This document shows positions 24,642 to 63,996 of a stretch of DNA of 64,000 bases, in pieces. The translations under genes and the position numbers were made by a program. Numbering within the stretch: the first letter of the stretch is position 1; each line of letters starts with the position of its first letter. The notes below the pieces were generated by a model. That model saw only the letters and a program-made list of their open reading frames with translations. It had not been told where the DNA came from and did not search any database. The stretch lies in NCBI GenBank assembly GCA_951406725.2, contig OX597817.1, positions 136,896,001 to 136,960,000 of the forward strand. The letters run 5' to 3'. The stretch comes from Octopus vulgaris (taxonomy: Eukaryota).

Positions 24642-25059
24642 GTTGTTCTGAGTTGAGTTGTGAATATACCAATATAATCTATGCTGTCATTTCGATCTTT
24701 ACACATTTAACTGGTTGGAGGATCTAAATCTTTTTATTTAGTCCACTGACGTTCAACATTTAAATATTCCTTACATCAACTTTTCTCCTTCATCATTTTA
24801 ACATTCATAAATTATGTCAGCCCATATAAATTAATGTTGTGCCATTCCAAAGAGAAAGGAAAGTAATTATTTTTTTATGTTAATTACATTTTTATTTCTT
24901 TTATTTATTTCTTTCATTTCTTTTAATTTTTTTTAGCTTTTTATATTTTTGTTTTTGATTTCTTTTTTTTTTAATCTATTATTTCCAAGGTCGTTTTATT
25001 TTTTGTTTTTGTTGTAGGAATGCAGAGAGACATGGAGAACGCATTTCTTTCTTTTGTAG

Positions 25060-25136
25060 AAATCCAGAGAAATCGCGAATTTTACCGAACAACAGACGTC
25101 CGACCACCATTCACATATGCCTCTCTCATTCGTCAG
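25060..25136 (+). CDS. FoxP: FoxP forkhead exon 1 ((E)[25 protein letters not shown]); a possible longer form starts at 25018
   Basis: Acceptor tttcttttgtag| at 25059 and donor CAG|gtaggt at 25137. Manual translation gives the FoxP signature [14 protein letters not shown]. Too short for the ORF track. Confidence 0.96.
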
Positions 25137-27466: not shown

Positions 27467-27568
27467 GCCATCATAGAATCTCCACATCGACAATTAACAT
27501 TGAGTGAAATCTATCAGTGGTTCGCAAACACATTTGCTTATTTCCGGCGGAATGAAGCTACGTGGAAG
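27467..27568 (+). CDS. FoxP: FoxP forkhead exon 2 ([34 protein letters not shown])
   Basis: Acceptor ctttcag| at 27466, donor AAG|gtaaat at 27569. 102 nt, phase 0-0, covering forkhead helices 1-2 and the FoxP hinge FAYF. Confidence 0.97.
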
Positions 27569-40041: not shown

Positions 40042-41356
40042 GTGGTGTAGTTTGGACAAGTGGTCACTGTTCTTTGAACTGTAACACTTTGTCCAACTCA
40101 TGCCATTATGGAAAAAGTGGATGAAAAACAGTGATGATGATAATGAAGGTGATGATGTATTTGCGTATTTGTATCTCTTTGTATGCATAGAATTACCTTC
40201 CTGTCTGTCTGTCTCTCCCTCTTTATATGTGTGTGTCTCTTTGTGTTTGTGTCTTATACATTTATGTTTGTCAAAATAGATGTGAGTTTGTGATATTCAT
40301 GCAGTACCTTCAATATCCCAGTAATTAACTGTTCTCTGTGTCTTCCCTCTGGTACACAACCTCAGTATTTTCCTACCTGAAAACAAACAGCAATCTTTAT
40401 ATTTTTCCTACAGTCGATATCATTAGACCAGCATTTAGTAACCACTGGTAAAGTGAAGCTATCAATTCATTTATTATTATTATTATTATTATCATTATTA
40501 TTATTATTATTATTATCATTATTATTTTTTTTTTTTGTGTGTATGTAAGTTCGGCTTTTTAATAAATTTCTTTTTTTTTTTCTTTTTGACTGTGCATGTT
40601 TCATGATTAAAATCCCTGAGCAGAGTTTAAGTTGTAGCAAAAACTAATGACAGAGTCTCTATTGAAGGCATGTATGGTACATGTGTATTTATATATGCAC
40701 GCACACACACACACACGCACACATTTTGTATGTGCCTATGAGCATGTCAGCTCATCACCCTTAAAATGTCTCTGAGATGTCATTGGAAATTATCTAAAGA
40801 GTTTGTGTGGGTGCATGCATACGTGTGAGTGAGGGTGAGAGAGAGAGAGAAATATGATACATACAATAAAGAAAATATATCTGCAAGTCTGTAAAAATGC
40901 ATTTTGCCTTCATTTGATTTTTTTGCTGAAATTTTTATGGGACTTGATTCTAGTAAATATTCTTTTTTGTTAAAGTTTATATTTGACAGCAAGAAATGAA
41001 CCGAAAGAAAATGGGTTCATTTTCTTGTCAAATAAAGGCAGAATTTCAAAGCCACTTCACTTACTCCACCAGTTATTAATCTAAACACCAAGTCAAACCT
41101 ATTTGCAGATTCATAAAATTTATTCTTCTCAAGATTTCTATTGTTATATTTCAAAATTTTCAAATATTTATCTGAAGCCATTAATTTGTATGGTTCTTTG
41201 GTCATTCCTGGTTTTAGCTACCAAACAGTCTGAGCCAGAAAGTGTTCTACTATAATTGAAGTAAAGAACAGTGAAGATGGTCAGACTGTATGAATCTAGT
41301 ATAGGGACATAGCATTTTGAGCTCAAATCTTGCTGAGGTTGACCTGGTTCGATACA

Positions 41357-41910
41357 TTAAATACCAGTAATACACCAGGCTACATGATTATCATTTATCT
41401 TTTACTTGAACCAAAGAATCTCACTCCTGAACATCTAAATAAAAGGGACTACTTTCCCTTAACCCTTTCATTACTGTATTTATTTTGAGATGCTCTGTGT
41501 TTGTTTCAATTACTTTTAAATATAACAAAGAATTTAGTAGAATAACTTAGTTATCATTCAGCTAGTGTTAGGAACATAAATTGTGACTAAGGTTTGGTGG
41601 AAGATTTTAATTCAAAACTTATGAAAACAAGACATTTGTACTCAGAGCCAGAGCCGGTTTTAGCCGGATTGGTTACGAAAGGGTTAAATACCATATTAGA
41701 ATGACAGCCTGCTCAACCAGCTTAAACTCTGCTTGTGTTACTTTTTTAAATACCAGTAATACACCAGGCTACATGATTATCATTTATCTTCTACTTGAAC
41801 CAAAGAATCTCATTCCTGAACATCTAAATAATAGGGACCACTTCTCCTTAAATACCGTATTAGGACAACAGCCTGCTCAAACAGCTTAAACTCTGCTTGT
41901 GTTACTTTTT
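41357..41910 (+). repeat. Local tandem duplication of ~165 bp (copy 1 41357-41746, interrupted by a MITE; copy 2 41746-41910)
   Basis: TAAATACCAGTAATACACCAGGCTACATG...AACTCTGCTTGTGTTACTTTTT occurs twice. Confidence 0.9.
41463..41683. mobile_element. piggyBac-type MITE, ~220 bp, TTAA target-site duplication
   Basis: TTAA|CCCTTTCATTAC...GTTACGAAAGGG|TTAA. The empty site survives in the adjacent duplicate, and a second copy lies at 58302-58522. Confidence 0.9.
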
Positions 41911-42000
41911 TTTTTTTTCCGTTTTATTTTTCAAAGTTTTTAGTTGTTATTATTTCAGTAGATCTCGTAGTAAAGTGGATGTTATGTGTTCTCTGCTTAG

Positions 42001-42441
<441 letters not shown>

Positions 42442-43651
42442 TAACTATTCTCCCCCCACCACTGCCATACAAACTCTAAAGCTCAGAAAAAAGTTCAGTC
42501 TTTGTTAACCTCACCACATTACTTCAATTATTACAAAAAGAAAAGAAAAAAAAATTTTAACGTTTTTCTCTTAAATATTTTATATAAATTTTTAAAAACT
42601 ATTTATTTTTGTCTTTTTCTTAAGTTAATTTCTTTTAGAAAGTTTTTTTTTTCCTTTTCATTTTACATGTGAGAGTTTATATGAGTATGTACTCATGTAT
42701 GTTTATATACTGTTTGCATGTGTGAGCAAAGGTGTATGTATGTGTATATATATATATATATATATATTTGTGTGTGTGTGTGTGTGTTCATCCATACTTG
42801 TCTGTCGATTCATTTATCTCTTAATTTCTTTCCAAGTAAATATTTAGAAAGTCTTGCAGAATTACATCTTATAAATTTCCTACATTGTCTTCTTTTCCAG
42901 TAGTTTTGATGCTAAATAATTTTGTATTTGCCTCAAGGTTTCTTTTTGTCTTCTACTAGTTCCAACCAATGGCTTGTGTGTGTTTGTGGGGGGGGGATTC
43001 CTTCATCTGGCGCTTGTTGTTGCCACTATGCTTAAATCTTTCAATCTTTCTCTCATACAGTTTTTATAGGAACCAAGTAAATATTAACATTAATAATAAT
43101 TATAATAATAATAATAATAATGATAATGATTTATTTTATTTGCCACCAGGGTGAAGGATGAGGCGGGGCAATAGAAAGACAGACATAAAGTGTTGAGGTT
43201 TACATATAATGGAATAATTAAAGCAAACGAAGTATACATGGTGTACAATAAACAAAGGAAGGCAATATACAGTAGTAAGGAAACAAAAAAGATGATAGTG
43301 ATGTGGTCCTCCTGATACAGGAAGACTTCTAGGGAAAATTGTTGAACCCTACCATCCAAGATCTCCTTGAACACCAAGGGCAAGCACCTTCTCCAACTCA
43401 CGGGTCAGTGGAGGGGAATTGGAGAAGTAGCACCCACTCTTGCCAATAAATTCAACCAAGGACCGCACCTCTCTACGCTCACTTTTCTTTCCAAGTGAAA
43501 CTTAAAAAAGTTGATGAGGCCTCCACCAAAGAGGAATGCATCTATCCTCATGCCTTTCAACCTCGTCACTAACAACATTGATATCAGCAGCCATAATAAT
43601 AGATAATAATGCCAATAATAATAACCGCAACAATAATAATAATAATAATAA

Positions 43652-44341
43652 TCCTTTCTACTATAGGCACAAGGCCTGAAATTTGGGGTGGGGGACTAGT
43701 TGATTACAGTGACCCCAGTATTTCATCAACCCCAAAAAGATGAAAGGCAAAGTTGGCCAAGGTGAAATTTGAACTACCAAACATAAGGACAGACAAAATG
43801 CTGCTAAGCATTTTCCTGCTGTGCTAACAATTCTGCCAGCTCACCACCTTAATAATAATAATAATAATAGTAGTAGTAGTAATCGATAACAATAACAGCA
43901 ATAATAATCCTTTCGACCACAAGCACAAAGCCAGAAATTTTTGCAGGAGGGGATTTGTTGATTACATTGACCCCAGTGCACAACTGGTATTTATTTAACT
44001 GACACCAAAATGATGAAATGATGGAATTTCAACTCATAATGTAAAAATGAATGAAATTCCACTCAGCAATTTGTCCAACATGCTAATTAATAATTCTGCC
44101 AATTTACTGCCTTAACAACAAGAACAATAATGATGATGATGATGATGATGATGACAATAACAAGATAATCCTTTCTACTAAAGGCACAAACCTGAAATTT
44201 TGGGGAAGGGGATTACTCAATGACATCAAGCCCAGTGTTTCACTGGTACTTAATTGACCCCTAAAGGATGAAAGGCAAAGATTGAAATGCTAATAAGCAT
44301 TTTGCCTGGCATGTTAACAATTCTGCCAGCTCACTGCCTTA
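43652..44341 (-). mobile_element. Three tandem SINE family A copies (43652-43851, 43907-44113, 44168-44341) separated by (TAA)/(TGA) runs
   Basis: Each begins TCCTTTC.AC..(T/A)AGGCACAA and ends TTCTGCCA...GCCTTAA on the + strand. Confidence 0.85.
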
Positions 44342-46374
44342 ATAATAATAATAATAATAATAATAATAGATATCCACAAAAGGGAAATCAAACCCTAAGA
44401 ACTTAAATTTTAACAGGTTGTTGTGGTGACATTGAATTGGGATAGAGTGCTAGGGGCTTGCTTAATTCAGATCAAGGAGATAATACTAAGACAATTAGAA
44501 GGGAAGACCAATTATGTAGATGGAAGGAGAACTGAAAAATGCCCTGAAAGATAGCAAAAACGATAAATGGTAATTGGTATTCACAAATTACCATTTACAC
44601 AAATAGGAAATGAGATTAAGTAAATGAGTAAACTCTACGCCTGTATTGAGTACAATTTGTGTCTCTTTTGCAAATTCAAATACTTATGGCGTGTTGTGTG
44701 TCTATTGTAGAGAAAATAAATCTTACGGTCTTGTGTAAGGTTAGTAAATTTGATGTTTGTATTGAACGTTGAAAAGGTTTATGATATTAGAAGGACTGTT
44801 CCAAGTGACTGCAATAGATGTGATAAGAGGACAACTGGGTATTTCGGGTGAGTTTAAGGTTAGGCTGGTACACGGTTTGTTGCTTCTGATGATTAACTGT
44901 TAGATTACTTGGTTATGTTGTTGTTGTGGATGTAATCATTATGATTGTTGTTAAAAATTGTTGCTTTTATTGATGTTGTGAGATGACCAGAAATGCAGTT
45001 TCAGTTCTTCTAGTTACTTCCATTATACTATAATTCATATTTTATGATCTTATCAGCATTGTCTTGGATAGATATTAAATTTTCAGGGAACATTATTTTA
45101 TGAAATTCCAGCATATTCTTTAAAAAAAAATTTTGCCATTTTTGATTGGTTTAAAAATCTTGAATGTTGACCATAAACCTTGTGAGGGGCAAGATTCTCT
45201 GTTAATCCTTCTATTTTGACTTGAATCATCTCTCTGCTCAACCAATCAAATTCTTGTTGAGCTAACACACTTTAAGAGTTATTACTTTCACAATTTGTGG
45301 CCATTCTTCATGCTAAAAATAGAAATCAAGTGACTTTAAATTCATTTTATTTTACCATCTAGGTATTGGTCTTTAAATATCTTTACTTACAATTTTTTTT
45401 GTTTTAATTGTATCCCATTATCTCTTTTACAACTTTAATGATCTTAACTTTAATCTTTCTTCCTACAAAAATTGAATTTTGCATCAATCTTAAAGTACAA
45501 AATTGCAAAGTGTTGCTTTTTTTCCTCTCCCCTCAATCCTTTGTGTCCTAATGTTCCTATTTGCCTACACTTCTAGGTTTACCTCTTGCAAATTCTTCAG
45601 ATGTAAATCACTGTCTGTCAATTACAGACCAACAACATTTTAGATATCTTACATATATGGTATTCTAATCTGACTAACTTCAAGGACATATGAGGCTACA
45701 TTGAAAGAAAGTCTGTTAGACTTTCCTCCAGCAATCCTTTATAACCACAGGCCTACTTTCAAATGTCTTTCACTCTTTCTCTTCTCCTAAATATTTATTA
45801 TTTTTCCCTGACCCCTTTTAATTAAATTTTTCCTTCTCACAGCATATTTGTAGATTAATCCTTTTATTCTTCATCTCCCACCCATTACACCCCTCTTGAA
45901 TTCAGTTTACAATTTTCCATCAACTATTAATCTCCAGTCATTACAATTAAACTTAATTTTTCTCTAAACTCATCAGCCATTTTAGTGTAGGAGCGTCGTA
46001 ACCAATAATGAGTCTTAACAGGTTATGAGTCTAAACAGGTTATGAGCCAGCATGGAAAAATGAATGTCAAATGATGATGGATGAGGATATACAGTGTGCT
46101 TCTTTCAGTTTCCATCTATCAAATTAACTCCCAAGACCTTAGTTGGCCTGGGTCTATTGTAGAAGATGCACTTGCCCAAGGTGTCATGCAGTGGGACTGA
46201 ACTTGGAACAAGTTAACCAGACAGCCACATCTGGTACATAGTGTTAGAAAATGAAAGAAACCATTTCCTTTGAGTATCCATTCAGTTGGTTTCAAGACTT
46301 CACATTCTAGAACAGAATTAAAAAAAGTAAACATCATAAACTCAAACTAACAACAACCTTTATATCATTAATAA

Positions 46375-48499
46375 TGATTCTTGGTTTAGACACTGGGTTA
46401 GTAAGTTTTGATGGGGAGGGTGTGCTGTCAACACTGTCAAATCTAGTACTTGACTGCTACTTTATCTAAAGAATGAAAGGCAAAGTTGATGCTGGTGTGA
46501 TTTGAACTCAAAATGTGAAGAACACTGGAATACCACAAAGCAGTTTTCCCAATGCTTTAATGACTTTGCCAAATTATTTTTGTTATTGTCATCATTGTAA
46601 TGACAAAATCGTTAAGGTATTGGATGAAATGCCTTGGAGCATTTTTCTGAGTTTTTATATTCTGAGATCAAATCTCATTGCATTTAACTTTATCTTTCAT
46701 CCCTCAAGGGTCAATAAAATAAAGTAGCAATCAATCACTGGCACTGGTGGTATTCACTCTCAAATTTCTGGCACAAGGTCAGAAATTTGAGAGTGAGATT
46801 TTGAAACTATGATTATTATTATTATTATTATTATTATAGGAACAAAGCTCAGATTTGGTCCTATTCCTGGTAGGGTTTATGTGGGTAGCAAGTTGCTACC
46901 AGTAACCTTAGGTATCCACACATTTTTGGCTGTCTTTTAAGTGCTTAGAAACCTCCTGATAATCCCTGTTCTCCCTAAGAGGCAAACTTTCTGTAGGAGC
47001 TCTACTGGGCATTCTATTTCAATCTCCTTCAGTCATTTGCCTGCATCTCTGCTTACTGTTCCCAACACATCAATTATTATAGGCATGACCTTTACCATTC
47101 TCATGCTCCAAATTCTTCTTCTTATTATTATTGTTATTATTATTTAGCAAAGCTGGTGAGCTGGCAGAACCATTACCATACTGGCCTAATGGTTGGTAGC
47201 ATTTAATTCATTTTTACATTCTGAGCCCAAATTCCGTCAAGGTTGATTGTGCTGCTCCTCCTTTTGGGGTTGATGAAATAAGTACCAGTTGAGCACTGGG
47301 GTCAATTTCATCAACCAGCTCCCTCACCCCAAATTTCTGGCCTTGAGCCTATTGTTGAATGTAATCGGCTTACTCTGTCATTGGGGTCAGTAATATCGAG
47401 TAATCCCCCCACCCCCAAAGATTGCTGTGCTCGTGCCTAATCAGAAACAATTGTTTAAGAATAATGGATTAACAGAACCATTAGAGTGTTGGATAAAATA
47501 TCTTGAGGAATTTTTTCCAGTTTTCATATTCTGTGTTCAAATCCTGCTGAGGTCAACTTGGCTTGTCATCTTTTCAGGGTCAGTAAGCTAAAGTACTGTT
47601 CGAGTTTTGGGATCAGTGTAACTGACTGTCCCCATTTTCTCAATTTCTGCTCTTCTGACTATGTTAGAAACATCATCATCATCATCATTATTATTGTTAT
47701 TATCATTGAGAGAGAGAGCAATTCTTGCCATTAATGTGATGCTGGGGTACAAATATGCGAAGACTAATATACTCATCATGACTACTTGTCTGATGAGGGT
47801 TCGCCAGGCACATGCATCACAACCATATGTGCACAACAGGATGACCTCAAATCAAAATAAATAGCACATGACTTTCAGGTGGGGACTAGTTAGTTAGGCT
47901 TTCCTTCAGGTTGAATAGCACATCTGCTCAAAAGGTTCATGAATAAGGGTTGTTTAAGAACAATGAATAAAAAACCCATGTTTCCAGAGGTGAATTATCC
48001 AAACCCCAAAGAATCCCTCTCAACACATGATGCTTCCCCACTACTTCTGCTCATGATCAGAGATGCACATATTGTCAGCCACTAAGGGACATGCTCAACT
48101 GGTTAAGATGAAAACAACTGACGAGCAAATCTGCGGTACTGAGCAGAATATTTGCTGTAGCCCATCTTTTATAACAAGACAAACCAATGTACATGATAAC
48201 ACTTCCAATCAGTTAAGATCAGAAGCCATGAGAGCCATTGCCTAATGGGCAATAATAATAATAATAATAATTATTATTATTATTTTTAAGGTGGTGAGTT
48301 GAGAGAATTGTTAGCATAGTAGACAAAATGTTTGGTGGCATTTCATGTCTTAATGTTCTGAGTTTAAATTCCACCAAGGTCAGCTTTACTTTTCACCCTT
48401 TCAGGGTTGATAAATTAAGTAACAATGAAACACTAGGGTTGATGTAATTAACTAGTCCCCTCCTCCAAAATTTCAGGCTTTGTGCTTATAGTAGAAAGG

Positions 48500-48500
<1 letters not shown>
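46375..48500. mobile_element. Cluster of SINE family A copies (minus ~46375-46570; plus ~46600-46810, ~47150-47450, ~47465-47670, 48288-48500)
   Basis: Recurrent diverged family A cores interleaved with (TTA)n. Confidence 0.75.
46839..47121 (-). mobile_element. 3' end of an R4/Dong-like restriction-endonuclease LINE inserted in a (TAA)n tract
   Basis: Minus strand translates to RRIWSMRMVKVMPIIIDVLGTVS...LLQKVCLLGRTGIIRRFLST*, resembling R4/Dong C-termini. (TTA)n on both flanks. Confidence 0.7.
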
Positions 48501-48567
<67 letters not shown>

Positions 48568-49635
48568 CATTATTATTAGCATATATAACTTTTGATCTTG
48601 AGTTTAAATCTTACACGAATCAACTTTGCTTTTTATCTTTCTTTGCTAATTATTTTACTATTGATATGTAATTGCCTCTGTCCCCTGTAGGATATTACTG
48701 GTACTTACTAACCTGAAAGGGAGAAGTAGCATAAATCCAAAACACAATATTGGAACTGTGTGTGTGTGTATAAGATGTACAATAAAAAATTTATATATGT
48801 TGATGGTGTTGGAACATGATACTTAAGAGGAGAGAATCACTTCTCGGTTTATTTTTCTTGTTGCATCTCTCTCTCTCTCTTTTCACTTAAGTAAGAATGT
48901 TCTGTTGGAACAAACTATACTGCGGTAGTTGCTATGAGAGAGACTATCTTATCAACTGCTAGTGATAGTAGTGACTCCTCTCCCTGCCAACGATATGTAG
49001 AATAACAGTGCCAGAGCAGGTGCTTGTGGGATTGTTAAAAAGCTTACTGAAGAAGCTCACTAGCTAACTGCATCATTAGCACCTGTTTTGGCACTATTAT
49101 TCAATATGTCACTGGCAGGGAGATGATTTACTGCCCTCTCTAGCGGCTGAGTGTCCATCATTGACAAGACCAAGGAAGGTTGAAATCACATAAACTGGTA
49201 GTCTTGGTGCTGGAGGTGGTGGGGATTTGTCTCCTCTGCTTGCGATATATACAAGTGTGCATTGTGCACCAAAAGCCAATATGAGAATTTCTCTCATGGC
49301 ATCTATTGCAGTATAGTCTGTTCTAACAGAACATCCACATTCAAGTGGGAATAGATATTACTTCTCCGTATTAATACTGCCTCTGTCACTGATATCTTTC
49401 TGTTGATTGATTCATTAGATAAACAGTGGAAAATGGTACTCAGCACATTTGTTAGGAGTTACATATATTGATAATGACAGTCTGACTGAACTCTGTATGG
49501 CTTAAGAATTTTGTGGGCATATAGAACATGTCCGTCTCATCCGATCTCAGAAGACTTTCTTCTCTTATCTGATGAGATGGATGCATCCTCTGCACCCACA
49601 AAACTTGTAAGTCATATGAAGCAGAGTCAAACTGT

Positions 49636-49678
<43 letters not shown>

Positions 49679-49693
49679 TATGTATATATATAT

Positions 49694-50007
49694 CCGGTGG
49701 CACGTAAAAAGCACCATTCAAGTGTGATTGCTACCAGCGTCGCCTTACTGGCACTTGTGCCGGTGACACGTAAAAAAAAAAACACGATTTTCCGTGACCG
49801 TTGCCAGTACTGCCTAACTGGCCCTCGTGCTGGTGGCACGTAAAAGCACCCACTACACTCTCAGAGTGGTTGGCGTTAGGAAGGGCATCCAGCTGTAGAA
49901 ACTCTGCCAGATCAAGATTGGAGCCTGGTGCAGCTATTTGGTTCGCCAGTCCTCAGTCAAATCATCCAACCCATACCAGCATGGAAAGCGGACGTTAGAC
50001 AATGATG

Positions 50008-50013
<6 letters not shown>
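49694..50013 (+). mobile_element. SINE family B copy
   Basis: Three GGTGGCACGTAAAA-type units, then the family body and a (GAT)n tail. Confidence 0.85.
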
Positions 50014-50038
<25 letters not shown>

Positions 50039-51297
50039 CTTTTGAGCATCACATCATTGCTGTGTTCAATACTGTGACAGGTAACATGGTTTGAAAGGGT
50101 CCACTGGATCCAAGAAATACCTCATGCTTCACTGTCCACATTGGCGTGGTTTCTATCACTGGATGCCCTTTCTGAGGCTAACCACTTTATCGCATGTGCT
50201 GAGTACTCTTTACCAGCACTAGTGAGGTGGTTGTCATATAACTTACAAAACTCTGAACCCTGGGAGGGCCAACTTTATGCTGTAAAATGAGGGAAGGGGC
50301 CAAGGCTGAACAAGTTTCTTGATGTAGAAGATCTATATGGTTACTGTGTTATTGCAAGAGAATACACGCACACACACATATACATGTGTATGTATGTATG
50401 TGCATATGTATATATATATATATCCATATCCAAACTGAGGGAGTGGAACTTGTAAAATGCAAGCCACATATGTTTCCTAGCTAAGTGAAGCTCACAGTGT
50501 AATAGTTATGTAATGTGTGTAATTCTTTGTTACCAATGAATTATTGTTTCTTGTACGCTTTCCACATTTGTTCTCTATACCTGCCATTCACTGCTTGAAG
50601 CTTACCAACTTCCTACACTTGGATCCCCAGGTTGTATCTCACTCAACATATATATATATCAGTGATTAGTTTTGATTATTGCAGAATAATAGTTGGAGGG
50701 AAATTGCTAAATTAGAGATTCTAGAAGGTGATAAGAAGAAAGTTACAGCTGAGGTTTGATTACAGAGCTTAGAGGATTAATCTATTAATCTGTTAGAGAT
50801 GTTGTAAGAAAGCAATGTTTAATCCAATTTACATCTGATTTATTTTGCATAAGATTGAATTCTCTGATACCAAGTCAACTCCTTTGGTTGCTTTAGTATT
50901 TCAAACATGCTGAGAGGGGGTTCTTGCCCACCAGTTGCATGAACAGTTCTATATAACCAGTGTTTTAAATTCTCTATATCAAACAATGAGAAACTGAACA
51001 TGTATTTAATATACAAAGACATGTGATGTAGTCTTTCTCAGCCATAACCAGCCTCACTACATCCCATCTGTTTATATATTTATTGATTTCTTATTGCCTG
51101 CTGAGTAGAATAATAATCACTAAGGAGGACTGATAAGACTGAAACAAGTCTCTTATAAAGATAACAATATCCACTCATATTTCTCTGAGATATTTAGAAA
51201 TTTAATATTTCTAAAATCCACTCCAATTTGCATTGTCTTTATTTTCTCAAACTTTGCACTGTTATCATTAAAGTTATCTCCTTTCTCTATAATATTG

Positions 51298-51640
51298 ATA
51301 GTGCTGCCTGACTGGCTCCTGTGCTGGTGGCACGTAAAAAGCACCATCCAAGCGTGGTCGATGCCAATACTGCCTGACTGGTTCCTGTGCCAGTGGCATG
51401 TAAAAAGCACCTTTCAAGTATGGTCAATGCCAGTGCTGCCTGACTGGCCCTTGTACCAGTGGGACATAATAAAAGCACCCACTACACTCTTGGAATGGTT
51501 GGCATTAGAAAGGGCATCCAGCTGTAGAAACCTTGCCAGATCAGATTGGAGCCTGGTGCAGCCTCCCAGCTTGCCAGTCCTCAGTCAAGCCGTCCAACCC
51601 ATGCCAACATGGAAAGCAGATGTTAAACAACGATAATGAA
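51298..51640 (+). mobile_element. SINE family B copy
   Basis: Three ~67-bp internal repeats, then the family body. Confidence 0.85.
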
Positions 51641-52843
51641 ATGTTTAGTAATAACTTGTAGGCTGGATATTGACAAATAATTTTTGTGAACTCAGTCTTT
51701 TTACTATTGTCTCACCTTTTCATTAACCTGTAACAGTTAAGTACAAGATCTAATTTTAACAGCTTAAACATTGGAGGAGGTCACCAATTATAATGATTTG
51801 CACCAAATAAATGAGAGTAGAAGATATTAATTGTTAGTTGAAAAGGTTTTTTTTTTTTTATATCGTTATTGTTACAAAGTTACAACTACTCTGAGTTGTA
51901 TCTTCAGTTTTCTGTAGGTAGTTAGCTTCATCTGTGAGTAATTAGTAAAGAAAGAAAGAGTAAGAGAGTTGTACATTGACAATCCCTAAATGAAAGGAGC
52001 AAATGAGCTGTGTTCTTTGGGTAGGTGTCAAGTAACCAAAGAGGAGGAACTGATTTCAGGTTGCTTATCTATATTCTTCCTAACCAGATTACATCAGGTT
52101 AATCAAAGAATATTTTCCTCTGTATCAGCTTTGACCCATGTATGTCTCAAAAAGATTAGAGATTTCAGTTAACTCTCATAAATATTTTAGTGCAACAGGC
52201 AAGAACAATAGGCAGAGAACTTGTAGAAAAATGTAGATTTAATTTGAAATCCTGGTTCAGAAATTGGAAGCTATAATCAACTGACTATAAATTTACCTTT
52301 TTTAGGCAGTTGAAATTATTTAACTCCCCCATTTCACTTCATCAGTGTATTTCTGCATTAATTTTCCATATAAAGGGTGGAGGTGGGGAGGTCTTTTTCA
52401 TTAACATCAGACTGATTAGTAAGATTTATATGTAAGAAGAAAACCTTTGCAAAATTTTTCAGTTAATTTTCATTTTAATTGTTTTAGAAATTGGAAAATA
52501 TTTCCTAATGGCATCAGGATTTATGTCTGCAAGTGGATCTGTGTATGTGTTCATGTAAACTTCCCAGTATTTTTACTCTCAGTCAGTGGATGATATTATT
52601 CTTTGTTTTTTATTTGTTTTTCTTTTATTTTTTTCATTCCATATTAACAAAATACAACATGATAAAGCATTAAACCAATTGGTTTGAGTATCTTATATGC
52701 ATGACCAACGAAAATTTCTCTACAAACTGAAGACTTTTTCATGGGCTTGGCTACTGTATATTCCCCTCTCTATATACATTTTCTGCCCTGCTGCTAACGC
52801 CATCTGCTGTCTTCTTTCCCATTTTTCTTCTCTTGCTGCACAG

Positions 52844-53001
52844 AATGCTATTCGCACCAATTTGTCCCTGCATAAATGTTTTGTAAGATATGAGGATGAT
52901 TTTGGATCGTTTTGGATGGTGGATGACTTTGAGTTCGTTAGGCGCCGCCATCTGACTCGTGGACGACCCCGAAAATATCACGAAAGTGACACTGCTGCAC
53001 A
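52844..53001 (+). CDS. FoxP: FoxP forkhead exon 3B, alternative paralogous exon ([53 protein letters not shown])
   Basis: Branch-like GCTAAC at 52793-52798, a long pyrimidine tract and cag| at 52843. Donor CA|gtaagc at 53002. 158 nt with the same 0-2 phase as exon 3A, aligning to it residue by residue. Confidence 0.95.
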
Positions 53002-56000
53002 GTAAGCACTAACTGGTTCTTTTCTCTCCTCCTCACAAACCAATTAATTCTGTCATGTTATCCCCTCCACCCCACCCCCAATCATTAAGATTCTCCACTT
53101 TCTTTCCTCTTTTTCATCATGTTGATGATTTAACTCTGATATTAGTTCTTCACCCTTTTCTTCCTCCCACCCTATTTTACTTCTCTCCCCGTTTTTTAAC
53201 TCAACCTTTAACATGTGGCTGATTCTCCCTCCTTCACTGTATTCTCTATACTCACTCCTCTCACTACCCCGCACCCCACCCTATAGACTTTTAATCTTTC
53301 TCAGATATTTCTGACCCTTGGCTCAAGATGACCAACTTTTTCTGTTTTACCATTCATTTTAGTGGGGAATTTTGAAATTTTCATCATTTTAGTTAAATAG
53401 ATGTTCTGCAATTAGTTAAATGACAGAGTTTTATTAGTTTAAAAAAAAATCAATTAAGAGAATAATGATTGAATAATTAACTCTACAAATTTATAATTAT
53501 AAATATTTAAGTTCCACACAAACTTCTTGAGGTTGTTGCTAAGATCTGAACTATTCTGTGTTCTGTTATGATTCTTCAGATATCCAACGTTAATCAACCA
53601 TTTCAATGGTTCTCAATATTTCTAAACATAACTGTTATGTTTTAAAGACATGAAACTAAGTCTGATATTCAGGGCTTTTATTTAGATGATTCCATTTGGA
53701 TTTGTTTGATTCCATTTGGATTTGTTTGATTACATTTTACTATCAAAAAGATCTTTCATAAATTTGCAGATATGAATTGTGTTTCTGTGTGTTTGTGGTG
53801 GCATGTTAGGGATTGTATAGCCAAGTTTATTCTCAGCTGTGAACTAGCAGGATCAATCTTAAGGCATGGTACCTGGGACTGCCATAGGCTCATGTTGCTG
53901 ACTTTTGAATAAAAGGGAGTTCATAGAAACCATGTAGAGATGTTTCAGATAAGCTGTACCAACTATAGATTTATCTGCTGTTAGTATATCTCATCTCAGC
54001 AACAATTCTATGTGTAAACCTTCTTAAAGATATTTCTAGGAAATAATCACCATTTTTCTGGCCAAATATTATTGATGACTTTTTAGAAATTTCTTTCCTA
54101 TAATTATTGAATGAACTAATTTTGAATTTATAGTGTACCAAAATAATTAAAGTTTTATAAATATTTACTTTTAAATCACTTTGTCAATTAATGAAATTTA
54201 AATTAAAACTAGGTATTGCAGTTCATTTGCTTGTTTCAGTAATATACTGCTGCCATGCTGGAGCACTGCCTTTAAAATTTGTTTGTAGAAAGATGTCTAT
54301 AGAATGAGGGTTAAATATATCTAGTTATTTTTAGCCTTGGGTCATAAATACCCTACTATTCTACATTTTTGGCAATTTTCTCCTGTAACTTTGAAGAAAT
54401 CCTTGCTTTTTTCTTTTTCCACCATTGGATATTGTCCCTTTTATCATTAACAGTTTTTTTTTTATTATTGTTTACTTAGGACCAGTTCTGTTCTTCATGT
54501 TCTTAAATATATTTAAACCTTACTTATTGAAATACCTGTTACCGGCTTCAGTAGACATTCTCCTTTTAGCTATACTATAGTTCCTTCTCTTATCTATTCT
54601 ATAAACCTATAATTAGCTACATAGAATGTTCTTCTTATTAACTTCAATATAGTTCCACTTAACAGCTATGGGATAGTTCTTCATTTTATATATAATATAG
54701 ATCATATTAACTATTGTAGACTTCCTCTTATTATCTTTTGTATAGTCCTCTTAATAGCTGTAGTAGACTTCCTTTAATTAGCCTTAGCGTTATTCCTGTT
54801 ATTAGCCGTAGTATAGTTCCTCTTACTAATGACATTATTGTTCCTGTTGTTATTGCCGAGTTCTTTACTTTGTATGTATTTTCATTAATTTACTTTCAAA
54901 ACTGAATTTGTTTGAAACTATTCCCAAAGTAAAACTAACAAAATATGATTATATATAAATACTGTATGTAGTTTAGCAGTATCTGCTATATTCCTTGAGT
55001 ATACTGTATGTAGTGTGGAATCATCTAGCTTCTAAGAACCACTCTGCAGCTGATAAACTGTTGCAATAAGTGCACCTGAGAAATTCTACTACAGTTTATT
55101 GCGAGGGACTCTATTTGGTGGCCACCACCACCACACACAAAAAAAAAAACAAATGAAAAATTGAGAATATTCTTTAACATTTTTGATACTGGTAACATTA
55201 TTTTCTTCTATTTGGGTTTGGAGAAATGTTTGCTTGCATTATTCTGCTAGATGCCTCATGATGGTATTATATTCACCAATGCTAAAGATTTCCTTTCAAA
55301 TGAAAATATGTTAGAATTTTCCAGCTCATTGAATTAGAAATGTTAATATTAAAAAAAAAAATGGCCAAAGAAGGAAAATCATTTTAAGTTGTGGAAAATT
55401 TAATTTGTTGTTATCAAACAAGCATTTATTTATTGAGTACCTTTTAAATTTGATGAAATTATTTTCTAATTTCCTGTGTGGTACCTATTTTCATACTTTA
55501 TATCTAGAATTATTTTAATTATACAACATCGCCACCCCACCAACAATAACAACAACAAACATTACAATGAGGTGGGAAGGGGGTAGTTGGTTACTGTCGC
55601 GGTTATCTGAAAATGTATCGTGTGAAAAATATTAAACGAGTGAGATTAAATTGCTGTACATCAATATCTGTGTGTAAAGGTGTTGTTTATGATTTACTCC
55701 ATTAAACATTTTCCCACTGCAACACTGTTTGCCTCTACCACCGTTTCTCAGCTGCCTCAGCTACAGGAGCAGCTGACAACAAACTGTTCGCTCTAGTGGT
55801 GGATTGAGTTGCAACAATGCAGTTCTTGTCTCTTCTAATCTCCCAAACTACCTATTACTGCTATAGTTTGGTTTGTTCCATCAGGTTCTATTGTAATTGA
55901 GTCTTAGCAAGTGTAATTACTTTGGTAATTACTTCCACTCTGATAGTTGAGGAACTATCAAAGTGAATCACTAATTCCTTTATATTTTGTTATCAGGAAC

Positions 56001-63920: not shown

Positions 63921-63996
63921 AAACCTATCCATGAAGAGTTCCAATATCAACCAGGATCCTTCATTATTTGGTGATAACTTGAATGCCAGTCTTAGG
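63921..63996 (+). CDS. FoxP: FoxP post-forkhead common exon (NLSMKSSNINQDPSLFGDNLNASLR)
   Basis: Branch-like gctaac and atttctacag| at 63920, donor AGG|gtaa at 63997. The phase-2 start fits exon 3A (GG+A) and exon 3B (CA+A). FGDNLNASL resembles the FoxP YG-x-ALNASL motif. Confidence 0.9.

Follow-up and report, generated by a model that had tools for sequence, protein, structure and literature searches.

A compact cluster of six YGCY words overlaps the polypyrimidine tract and predicted branch point of exon 3B, one of the two mutually exclusive forkhead exons of octopus FoxP. The best explanation, which we advance tentatively, is that this cluster is a lineage-restricted silencer on which Muscleblind could act, shifting splicing from 3B, with its strong acceptor and weak donor, to 3A. 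That the logic of this switch was inherited in common by molluscs and mammals is unproven.

The octopus FoxP exon pair

The window, which is the whole 64-kb stretch of DNA analyzed, is octopus FoxP, and its features are collected in Table 1. Exons 3A and 3B are homologous to mammalian FOXP1 exons 18 and 18b, respectively. An either-or FoxP A/B pair was known for molluscs before this work (Santos et al., PMC3002244), the bilaterian FoxP/FOXP1 A/B exons (human 18/18b) having been predicted for Mollusca in that paper, and the pair is ancestral by both that paper and the tree built here. In the tree (23 rows) the A and B exons formed separate clades with support of 100/100. Exon 3B was identical to the B exons of deer and marmot at 27/34 positions and to their A exons at 21/34, and 3A was identical to their A exons at 32/34. 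The homology of 3B to 18b, proposed in a first-pass annotation of this DNA, was upheld by the tree and these counts; the tandem exons encode the second half of the forkhead domain, with B grouping with vertebrate 18b. A prokaryotic genome scan with exon 3B returned 600 pattern matches, none of which was confirmed.

The two exons agree in splice phase, their lengths of 122 and 158 nt both being 2 mod 3. Either exon alone is in frame, and inclusion of both or neither leads to early stops; when 3B is spliced after 3A, a stop codon arises at 52884-52886. None of 8 chiton records contained both exons. Among 13 annotated Octopus records, 9 carried B, 4 carried A and none carried both; by these counts B does not look rare or normally silenced, although annotation counts are not expression.

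Table 1. Features of the FoxP window, all on the + strand
Feature	Position	Remarks
FoxP feature	27467..27568	tblastn of O. bimaculoides XP_052822827.1 and junctions
3A acceptor region	41940..42000	Short tract; AGs at -27, -32, -41, -44
Exon 3A	42001..42122	122 nt; homologue of FOXP1 exon 18 / fly isoform A; donor GG/GTATGT
U/UG-rich stretch directly 3' of 3A donor	42129..42168	78% T
TGCATG (Rbfox word)	52698..52703	-146 from 3B; chance-level
AG-free zone before 3B acceptor	52733..52841	Preceding AG at -113
Six-YGCY cluster, candidate Muscleblind-type silencer	52784..52837	Motif counts; read-through identity in O. bimaculoides
Predicted branch heptamer TGCTAAC	52792..52798	Branch A predicted at 52797; YGCY sites overlapping
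3B polypyrimidine tract	52809..52833	
Exon 3B	52844..53001	158 nt; homologue of FOXP1 exon 18b / fly isoform B; donor CA/GTAAGC
ACTAAC, lone STAR-family core (QKI or SF1)	53008..53013	+7..+12 of 3B donor
Most pyrimidine-rich 300-nt sense-strand window	53013..53312	75% Y, 7% G; unique sequence
Downstream exon common to both isoforms	63921..63996	TGCTAAC before; TGCATG at -105

Splice sites of 3A and 3B

The 3B acceptor is stronger than that of 3A, as had been claimed. The pyrimidine fraction at -30..-3 was 0.57 for 3A versus 0.86 for 3B, the longest pyrimidine run 6 versus 13, and the AG-free zone 27 nt versus 113 nt, the latter being the longest among the seven acceptors measured. No branch-like heptamer was matched in the 3A acceptor region. 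With respect to donors, that of 3B was the poorest match to U1 (6/11) of the five scored. The U/UG-rich stretch that follows the 3A donor we take to be a candidate enhancer, possibly of TIA-1/CELF type. Steric exclusion between 3A and 3B was considered and rejected on the basis of their 10.7-kb spacing.

The YGCY cluster

YGCY is a common word. All six tetramers claimed to lie within 54 nt around the 3B branch point and tract were found in place (TGCC at 52784; TGCT at 52789, 52792, 52805 and 52834; CGCC at 52798), overlapping both of these predicted signals. This was the sole 54-nt window with at least 6 sites on the + strand of the 64 kb; the minus strand likewise had one, in a CAG-repeat coding exon. 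On the sense strand the cluster was the tightest for k = 5, 6 and 7 sites and the second tightest for k = 4, and of 3309 60-mers ending in AG, the only one with at least 6 YGCY was that before 3B. Among the 16 YNNY words, YGCY ranked best at the 3B acceptor (window fraction 1e-4), followed by YTGY (0.005); at five other acceptors the best word reached window fractions of 0.005-0.05. Six YGCY lay upstream of 3B, four inside it and none in the 250 nt downstream, where their lack follows in part from G depletion.

The cluster was significant by mononucleotide shuffle (p=0.002), and 0/30000 simulations reached it under Markov models (orders 1-3) fitted to 221 pseudo-acceptors rich in pyrimidines. 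Clustered YGCY upstream of or within the exon was thus above background, the result being negative against the dinucleotide shuffle only (p=0.21). Because of this last result, the signal is to be described as a GpC excess within a pyrimidine run.

These statistics bear on whether a dedicated regulator is needed at all. Exon 3B could simply have a strong branch point and tract in which the few purines happen to be GC, with the flanking words there by chance. The dinucleotide shuffle is compatible with this, and one of the YGCY sites belongs to the heptamer TGCTAAC, an ordinary branch word here that is also found before the common downstream exon; in addition, TGCATG occurs at chance level and ACTAAC was picked post hoc. 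We nevertheless regard this explanation as unlikely. When the branch heptamer and CAG were held fixed the shuffle gave p=0.007, and among 108 pyrimidine-rich AG-ending 60-mers only that of 3B had more than 3 YGCY, the other 107 all having at most 3. Five other acceptors had 0-1 YGCY in 60 nt, and 3B is the site of three window-level extremes, in the density of YGCY, in the zone free of AG and in the pyrimidine tract that follows the exon.

Flanking words and RNA structure

The TGCATG word was present upstream of 3B as annotated, and the Rbfox role attached to it did not hold up. The + strand of the 64 kb contains 40 copies, giving a chance of 9-27% (~9% for a 150-nt flank), and another copy lies before the common downstream exon. 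Near 3B there was a single copy, without the enrichment of UGCAUG expected at Rbfox-regulated exons. Rbfox was rejected as a 3B regulator since the word did not exceed chance, and TGCATG is probably incidental.

ACTAAC, annotated as a QKI-type site directly after the 3B donor, was likewise in place, as a lone core without a neighboring half-site, which weakens the proposed QKI role. The + strand has 21 copies, and the chance of one at +7..+40 is ~1%, a borderline value for a word picked post hoc. The NACUAAY core of a QKI response element was present (CACTAAC at 53007-53013), and the nearest downstream UAAY starts at +44, 31 nt past the core. The gap to the half-site in such elements ranges from 1 to 20 nt and is 13 nt in the MBP example. 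By the published map a downstream QKI site favors exon inclusion (PMC9122611). ACTAAC equally resembles a branch point heading the 300-nt pyrimidine tract, and together ACTAAC and tract, placed after the weak 3B donor, probably serve as an additional control region. A cryptic exon after the first AG of the tract (53088) was rejected, as 53090-53500 contained no donor-like word to define one.

The flanks could be regulatory and yet be read by other factors: a CELF/Bruno-type protein on CUG, a PTB-type protein on the CU tracts on both sides, SF1/U2AF on a decoy branch point and tract near the donor, or a tract-exon hairpin. The rank of YTGY and the 14 CU words upstream and 17 downstream of 3B would suit this view, although downstream of 3A there were also 17. 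The branch-point-like order of ACTAAC and tract is in keeping with competition between SF1 and QKI for ACUAAC (PMC13004596), but no donor-like word that would define a cryptic exon followed in 53090-53500. The hairpin, a lead at most, was predicted with z -1.83 in a window trimmed post hoc, whereas the acceptor of the common exon scored -1.60. We judge such other readers to be improbable.

Stable local structure near 3B was not found in the other windows folded (z +0.43, +0.33, +0.05, -0.47 and -1.28); in a 241-nt fold the GC cores of the cluster were predicted to be mostly paired. Long-range pairing was rejected, the best duplexes (-34 to -39 kcal/mol) being comparable to those of 4 random segments (-28 to -39), and competing long-range duplexes with the flanks of both exons, as in a docker-selector arrangement, were not seen. 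Ranked by length, the top 25 among 629 inverted pairs all fell mid-intron. Derivation of the sequence flanking 3B from a repeat was also rejected, with only T-rich low-complexity matches at 52594-52652, and Rfam gave no matches in 41000-55000.

Muscleblind as candidate regulator

Repression of FOXP1 exon 18b by MBNL1/2 was reportedly described by Han et al. in 2013 (as cited in PMC8189919, PMC4978528 and PMC13044900). MBNL1 is termed the dominant repressor of 18b in PMC8189919, and repression of the homologous exon by MBNL is also given in PMC4978528; MBNL is an a priori candidate for this reason. The first-pass annotation had drawn on the same repression, and the YGCY cluster stood far above local background at a repressive position. 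In the MBNL repressive map, sites lie upstream and include those blocking tract and branch site (PMC13044900), and the octopus layout, upstream and exonic with none downstream, fits this arrangement. The planarian protein, from another spiralian, has the same binding specificity as the mammalian one, and the role of MBNL as a repressor of stem-cell splicing is conserved (PMC4978528).

In the mechanism we propose, Muscleblind would bind the YGCY words over the 3B branch point and tract and block recognition of the acceptor, so that 3A is chosen. Without Muscleblind the strong 3B acceptor would win; with it, the weak 3A acceptor would be used, perhaps aided by the U-rich flank of its donor. Messages with both exons or neither would presumably be cleared by nonsense-mediated decay.

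Conservation of the cluster

Conservation was read from gene models and proteins that translate through the intron, and such peptides give only upper bounds. The UniRef entry A0A0L8FR17 (O. bimaculoides) translates through the intron before 3B, and its last 26 codons were identical to the window (26/26), with 4/6 GC cores of the cluster forced by Ala codons and with one substitution and one frame change just 5' of the identical stretch. The simulated chance of 26/26 was 0.14, 0.036 and 0.005 at assumed neutral divergences of 3, 5 and 8%, the two species having split ~34 Mya. This suggests that the cluster is retained in O. bimaculoides; the two-species identity may also reflect core splice constraint.

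Among the matches listed, the five closest non-octopus read-throughs could hold at most 2, 4, 5, 3 and 2 YGCY in the same 60 nt (expected 0.5-0.8), so that none of these five has room for the six-site cluster at this position, taxa being inferred from exon similarity only. Of 79 invertebrate read-throughs only 10 had room for six YGCY, and the median expectation was 0.68, against 3.8 in O. bimaculoides. Among the top 120 matches from each of three homologue searches (388, 156 and 261 in total) and the top 150 of 489 in a representative search, none was recognized as a read-through from a further cephalopod genus. The closest read-throughs end at the 3B donor. Octopus and mammalian intron read-throughs bore no resemblance by eye. 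The cluster appears to be restricted to Octopus, perhaps to cephalopods, and would therefore have been gained, or have turned over, instead of descending together with the exon.

The claim that molluscs and mammals share the regulatory logic survived only in part: the same factor may act in Octopus and mammals, but the same 60 nt of those five closest read-throughs had no room for the cluster. Under deep homology, repression of FoxP exon B by Muscleblind would date back to the ancestor of bilaterians, the sites having shifted position since then. The ancestry of the exon pair, the donors conserved across phyla as implied by read-throughs, and the conserved specificity and stem-cell role of MBNL are consistent with this; deer and marmot read-throughs before 18b have room for up to 10-11 YGCY (expected ~2), and fly hemocytes contain isoform A only. 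The low invertebrate counts argue against it, as does one invertebrate relative whose ~94-nt A-B intron is poor in possible sites. Exons regulated by MBNL in both planarian and human were reported only as non-homologous ones (PMC4978528), and FoxP gave no matches in the 8 supplements of that study, whose tables may use gene ids. In flies isoform B is carried by ~65% of FoxP neurons, adults included (PMC7776582), unlike the situation in mammals. Deep homology is thus quite unlikely, and we give equally little credence to the version in which the Muscleblind-FoxP exon B link was kept from the bilaterian ancestor and, when the A-B intron of octopus had lengthened to 10.7 kb, was remade there as a compact silencer at the branch point.

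Significance

The FoxP A/B switch alters a DNA-contacting residue (PMC3002244), and the mammalian exon switch alters the FoxP target motif (PMC11701043). Our literature search found no selector of exon B outside vertebrates, and PMC6682673, PMC8989529 and PMC11998571 contained nothing on cis-elements. The 54-nt candidate element makes selection of exon B directly testable, and would show whether ancient alternative exons keep or reacquire their regulator; planarian work found the role of MBNL conserved and its targets largely not shared (PMC4978528). Were the deep link true, a mollusc and a mammal would share by descent both an exon and its control, which is rare, and the switch would change the DNA specificity of FoxP in the nervous system of octopus.

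Comparison with known systems

As in FoxP A/B pairs elsewhere, A precedes B in octopus, the phases are the same and a His-to-Thr change falls in the recognition helix. Octopus B retains Asn where mouse B has Gly, and both octopus exons are internal, whereas in fly A/B are the last two exons. The octopus A-B intron measures 10,721 nt, compared with ~142-169 nt implied by the deer and marmot models and ~94 nt in the invertebrate relative, assuming uninterrupted read-through.

The ACTAAC word has the same ACUAAC core as the QKI response element and the sites of SF1 competition (PMC2697983; PMC13004596), but without the neighboring half-site and at donor +7 rather than in the exon's own branch site. 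In fly neurons Mbl sets another two-exon either-or cassette, Dscam2 10A/10B, by repressing the first exon and selecting the second; no site cluster was mapped there, and 63 YGCY sites surround the cassette without clear positional logic (PMC6357765). In planarians, exons repressed by MBNL are enriched in exonic rather than upstream-intron sites (PMC4978528). A further likeness is to MBNL1/2 and FOXP1 18b, with a homologous exon, YGCY over the upstream splice signals and a repressive position, while fly isoform B, unlike mammalian 18b, is not stem-cell-restricted.

Organization of the octopus FoxP gene

The 3' half of octopus FoxP lies on the + strand of the window, and the two exons tested matched O. 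vulgaris CAI9721853.1 at 100% identity and O. bimaculoides at 95-96%. From the shared forkhead exon onwards, the introns measure 14,432, 10,721 (A-B) and 10,919 nt. The reading frame is kept with exon 3A alone or exon 3B alone, while joining both creates a stop at 52884-52886, 115 nt ahead of the next junction, and skipping both creates a stop inside the next exon; by the general rule of nonsense-mediated decay (NMD), both kinds of message would be degraded. Annotated Octopus records (n = 13) contained B in 9 cases, A in 4 and both in none, and chiton records (n = 8) B in 5 and A in 3. A tree of 23 exon peptides, taken from the window and from named records, separated A from B at 100/100 and placed 3B among the B exons, together with the 18b-type exons of deer, marmot and eel. 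The A/B switch itself is already known: PMC3002244 describes the pair as bilaterian and predicts it for Mollusca. Further upstream, two AG acceptors 42 nt apart (25016-25060; exon starts 25018 and 25060) are consistent with isoforms that differ by 14 residues just before the forkhead domain.

Exons of the octopus FoxP gene around the A/B pair
Feature	Position	Strand	Length
Shared forkhead exon	27467-27568	+	
Exon 3A	42001-42122	+	122 nt, 2 mod 3
Exon 3B	52844-53001	+	158 nt, 2 mod 3
Next shared exon	start 63921	+	

A YGCY cluster at the 3B acceptor

The first-pass annotation had described six YGCY words (bound by Muscleblind, Mbl/MBNL), the Rbfox word TGCATG and the QKI/STAR-type word ACTAAC around 3B, and on rechecking the sequence every coordinate was correct. 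Window counts, shuffles and Markov models showed the YGCY cluster to be strongly non-random against local background. Six sites per 54 nt occurred in a single window of the sense strand, where the tightest clusters of 5, 6 and 7 sites spanned 25, 54 and 66 nt (runners-up 36, 79 and 118 nt). Only 1 of 3309 AG-ending 60-mers, the 3B acceptor, held six YGCY, and the other 107 pyrimidine-rich ones held at most 3 each. YGCY ranked first of 16 YNNY words at this acceptor (window fraction 1e-4), compared with 0.005-0.05 for the top word at five other acceptors. The count gave p = 0.002 by shuffle, p = 0.007 when the branch heptamer and CAG were kept fixed, and 0/30000 under Markov models; against a dinucleotide shuffle no significant excess was seen (p = 0.21). 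That 3B has no dedicated regulator is unlikely. One of the six sites sits in the predicted branch heptamer TGCTAAC, which is also found before the shared downstream exon.

Splice sites and flanks of the two exons

The 3B donor was the worst U1 match among five scored (6/11, none exonic), and no other acceptor measured had an AG-free zone as long as that of 3B (113 nt; others 24-58), so 3B is a strong-acceptor, weak-donor exon. Exon 3A is a weak-acceptor exon with a donor flank of 78% T. Local duplications (92-98%) lie just upstream of its acceptor, at 41357-41462/41746-41851 and 41684-41747/41848-41911.

Since TGCATG has 40 copies on the sense strand, one of them at -105 of the shared downstream exon, its presence near 3B is uninformative. 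ACTAAC does stand at +7 of the 3B donor with a single-test probability of about 1%, but it was chosen post hoc and has no close UAAY, the closest downstream being 31 nt away; QKI binding reportedly requires a neighbouring half-site (PMC2697983), and a position of QKI downstream has been linked to exon inclusion (PMC9122611). Just 3' of the donor, 53013-53312 has the highest pyrimidine content of any 300-nt stretch on the sense strand (75% Y, 7% G) and is AG-free up to 53088, and no tandem repeat was found in the 300 nt after the donor. By its sequence, ACTAAC with the following tract looks like a putative branch point and tract, and SF1 and QKI are described as competing for this type of word (PMC13004596). 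A different factor reading the 3B flanks, or a hairpin, is an improbable explanation. In the predicted hairpin 52800-52925 the 3B tract pairs with the purine-rich exon body at z -1.83, a post hoc value that the shared exon nearly equals (-1.60).

Many protostome exon-B read-throughs (protein records whose frame continues into the intron) end in Q and then a stop, as in octopus (52999-53005), which implies a putatively conserved CA/GTRA donor at exon B; were the intron after 3B retained, translation would terminate right at its donor. The read-throughs closest to octopus stop at this donor, short of the position of ACTAAC. At exon A, the donor is read as G-Y-V (GG/GTAYGT) in octopus (42121-42128), several insects, a crustacean, and models from eel, deer, marmot and tamarin, so that it is probably conserved across bilaterians. 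A-Q before exon B (GCNCAG acceptor, 52838-52843) is common to mollusc-like read-throughs and present in 12/139 overall.

The A-B intron spans 10.7 kb in octopus, whereas the read-throughs imply about 94 nt for one invertebrate and 142-169 nt for deer and marmot; steric exclusion could work where the gene is compact, but not at the octopus spacing. Long-range RNA pairing for the 3A/3B choice was unsupported in the window, as were Rfam family membership (41000-55000) and a repeat origin of the 3B flanks. Between 43080 and 49355 the A-B intron holds many inverted dispersed and simple repeat copies (up to 92 nt, 85% complementary), possibly forming double-stranded RNA for editing. An open frame around 8744 (- strand), in an upstream intron, resembles a LINE-type reverse transcriptase region.

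Conservation of the cluster

Protein records with a reading frame through the intron served as a conservation proxy; a scan of prokaryotic genomes with exon 3B confirmed none of 600 pattern matches. In UniRef A0A0L8FR17 (O. bimaculoides) the last 26 codons before 3B translate as in the window (26/26); a single substitution and a single frame change lie immediately 5' of them, and four of the six GC cores follow necessarily from Ala codons. The simulated chance of 26/26 was 0.14, 0.036, 0.005 and 0.001 at assumed divergences of 3, 5, 8 and 10%; proteins of the two species differ at 16/829 positions, and their split is dated to about 34 Mya (10.1101/2023.05.16.540928).

For each read-through we worked out how many YGCY its last 20 codons could hold at most and how many would be expected; calibrated on the window, the true 6 gave a maximum of 10 and an expectation of 3.7. 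Filtering 310 stored proteins for distinct read-throughs of 20 or more codons with an invertebrate signature left 79, with a median expectation of 0.68. Ten of the 79 had capacity for six YGCY, the highest expectation among the ten being that of O. bimaculoides. The five most mollusc-like exon-B read-throughs (43-48/53 identical to octopus), whose taxa were judged from exon similarity alone and some of which may be model joins, gave maxima of 2, 4, 5, 3 and 2; further sites may lie upstream, the preceding 60 nt of these five having room for up to 1-8. Deer and marmot models had room for 10-11, with about 2 expected. An inherited bilaterian control of exon B seems distinctly improbable, and the earlier three-factor, mollusc-to-mammal proposal is overstated.

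A candidate Muscleblind silencer

Octopus orthologues of mbl and QKI are presumably present. Our most likely reading, held tentatively, is a Muscleblind-type silencer: Mbl at the candidate element over the 3B branch point would repress 3B, cells with Mbl would fall back on 3A, and NMD would remove mis-spliced messages. Among mammalian repressors of 18b, MBNL1 is reported to be dominant (PMC8189919) and to act through direct intronic binding (PMC4978528, reporting Han 2013). MBNL can repress an exon by covering its branch site or tract, and human targets are also recognised by the fly protein (PMC13044900). The planarian protein resembles mammalian MBNL in specificity, but its targets in common with human are non-homologous exons, and its repression tracked exonic sites (PMC4978528); FoxP had no match in 8 supplements of that study. 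In flies, isoform B is reported in about 65% of FoxP neurons of larvae and adults (PMC7776582), and hemocytes are reported to express isoform A only (PMC3002244). Among the listings and abstract openings of a literature search outside subscription journals, no paper on control of FoxP exon B in molluscs appeared. Fly Dscam2 10A/10B choice is set by Mbl, with 63 YGCY and no clear site logic described (PMC6357765). The octopus YGCY element is a credible, testable new case of a known type of control.
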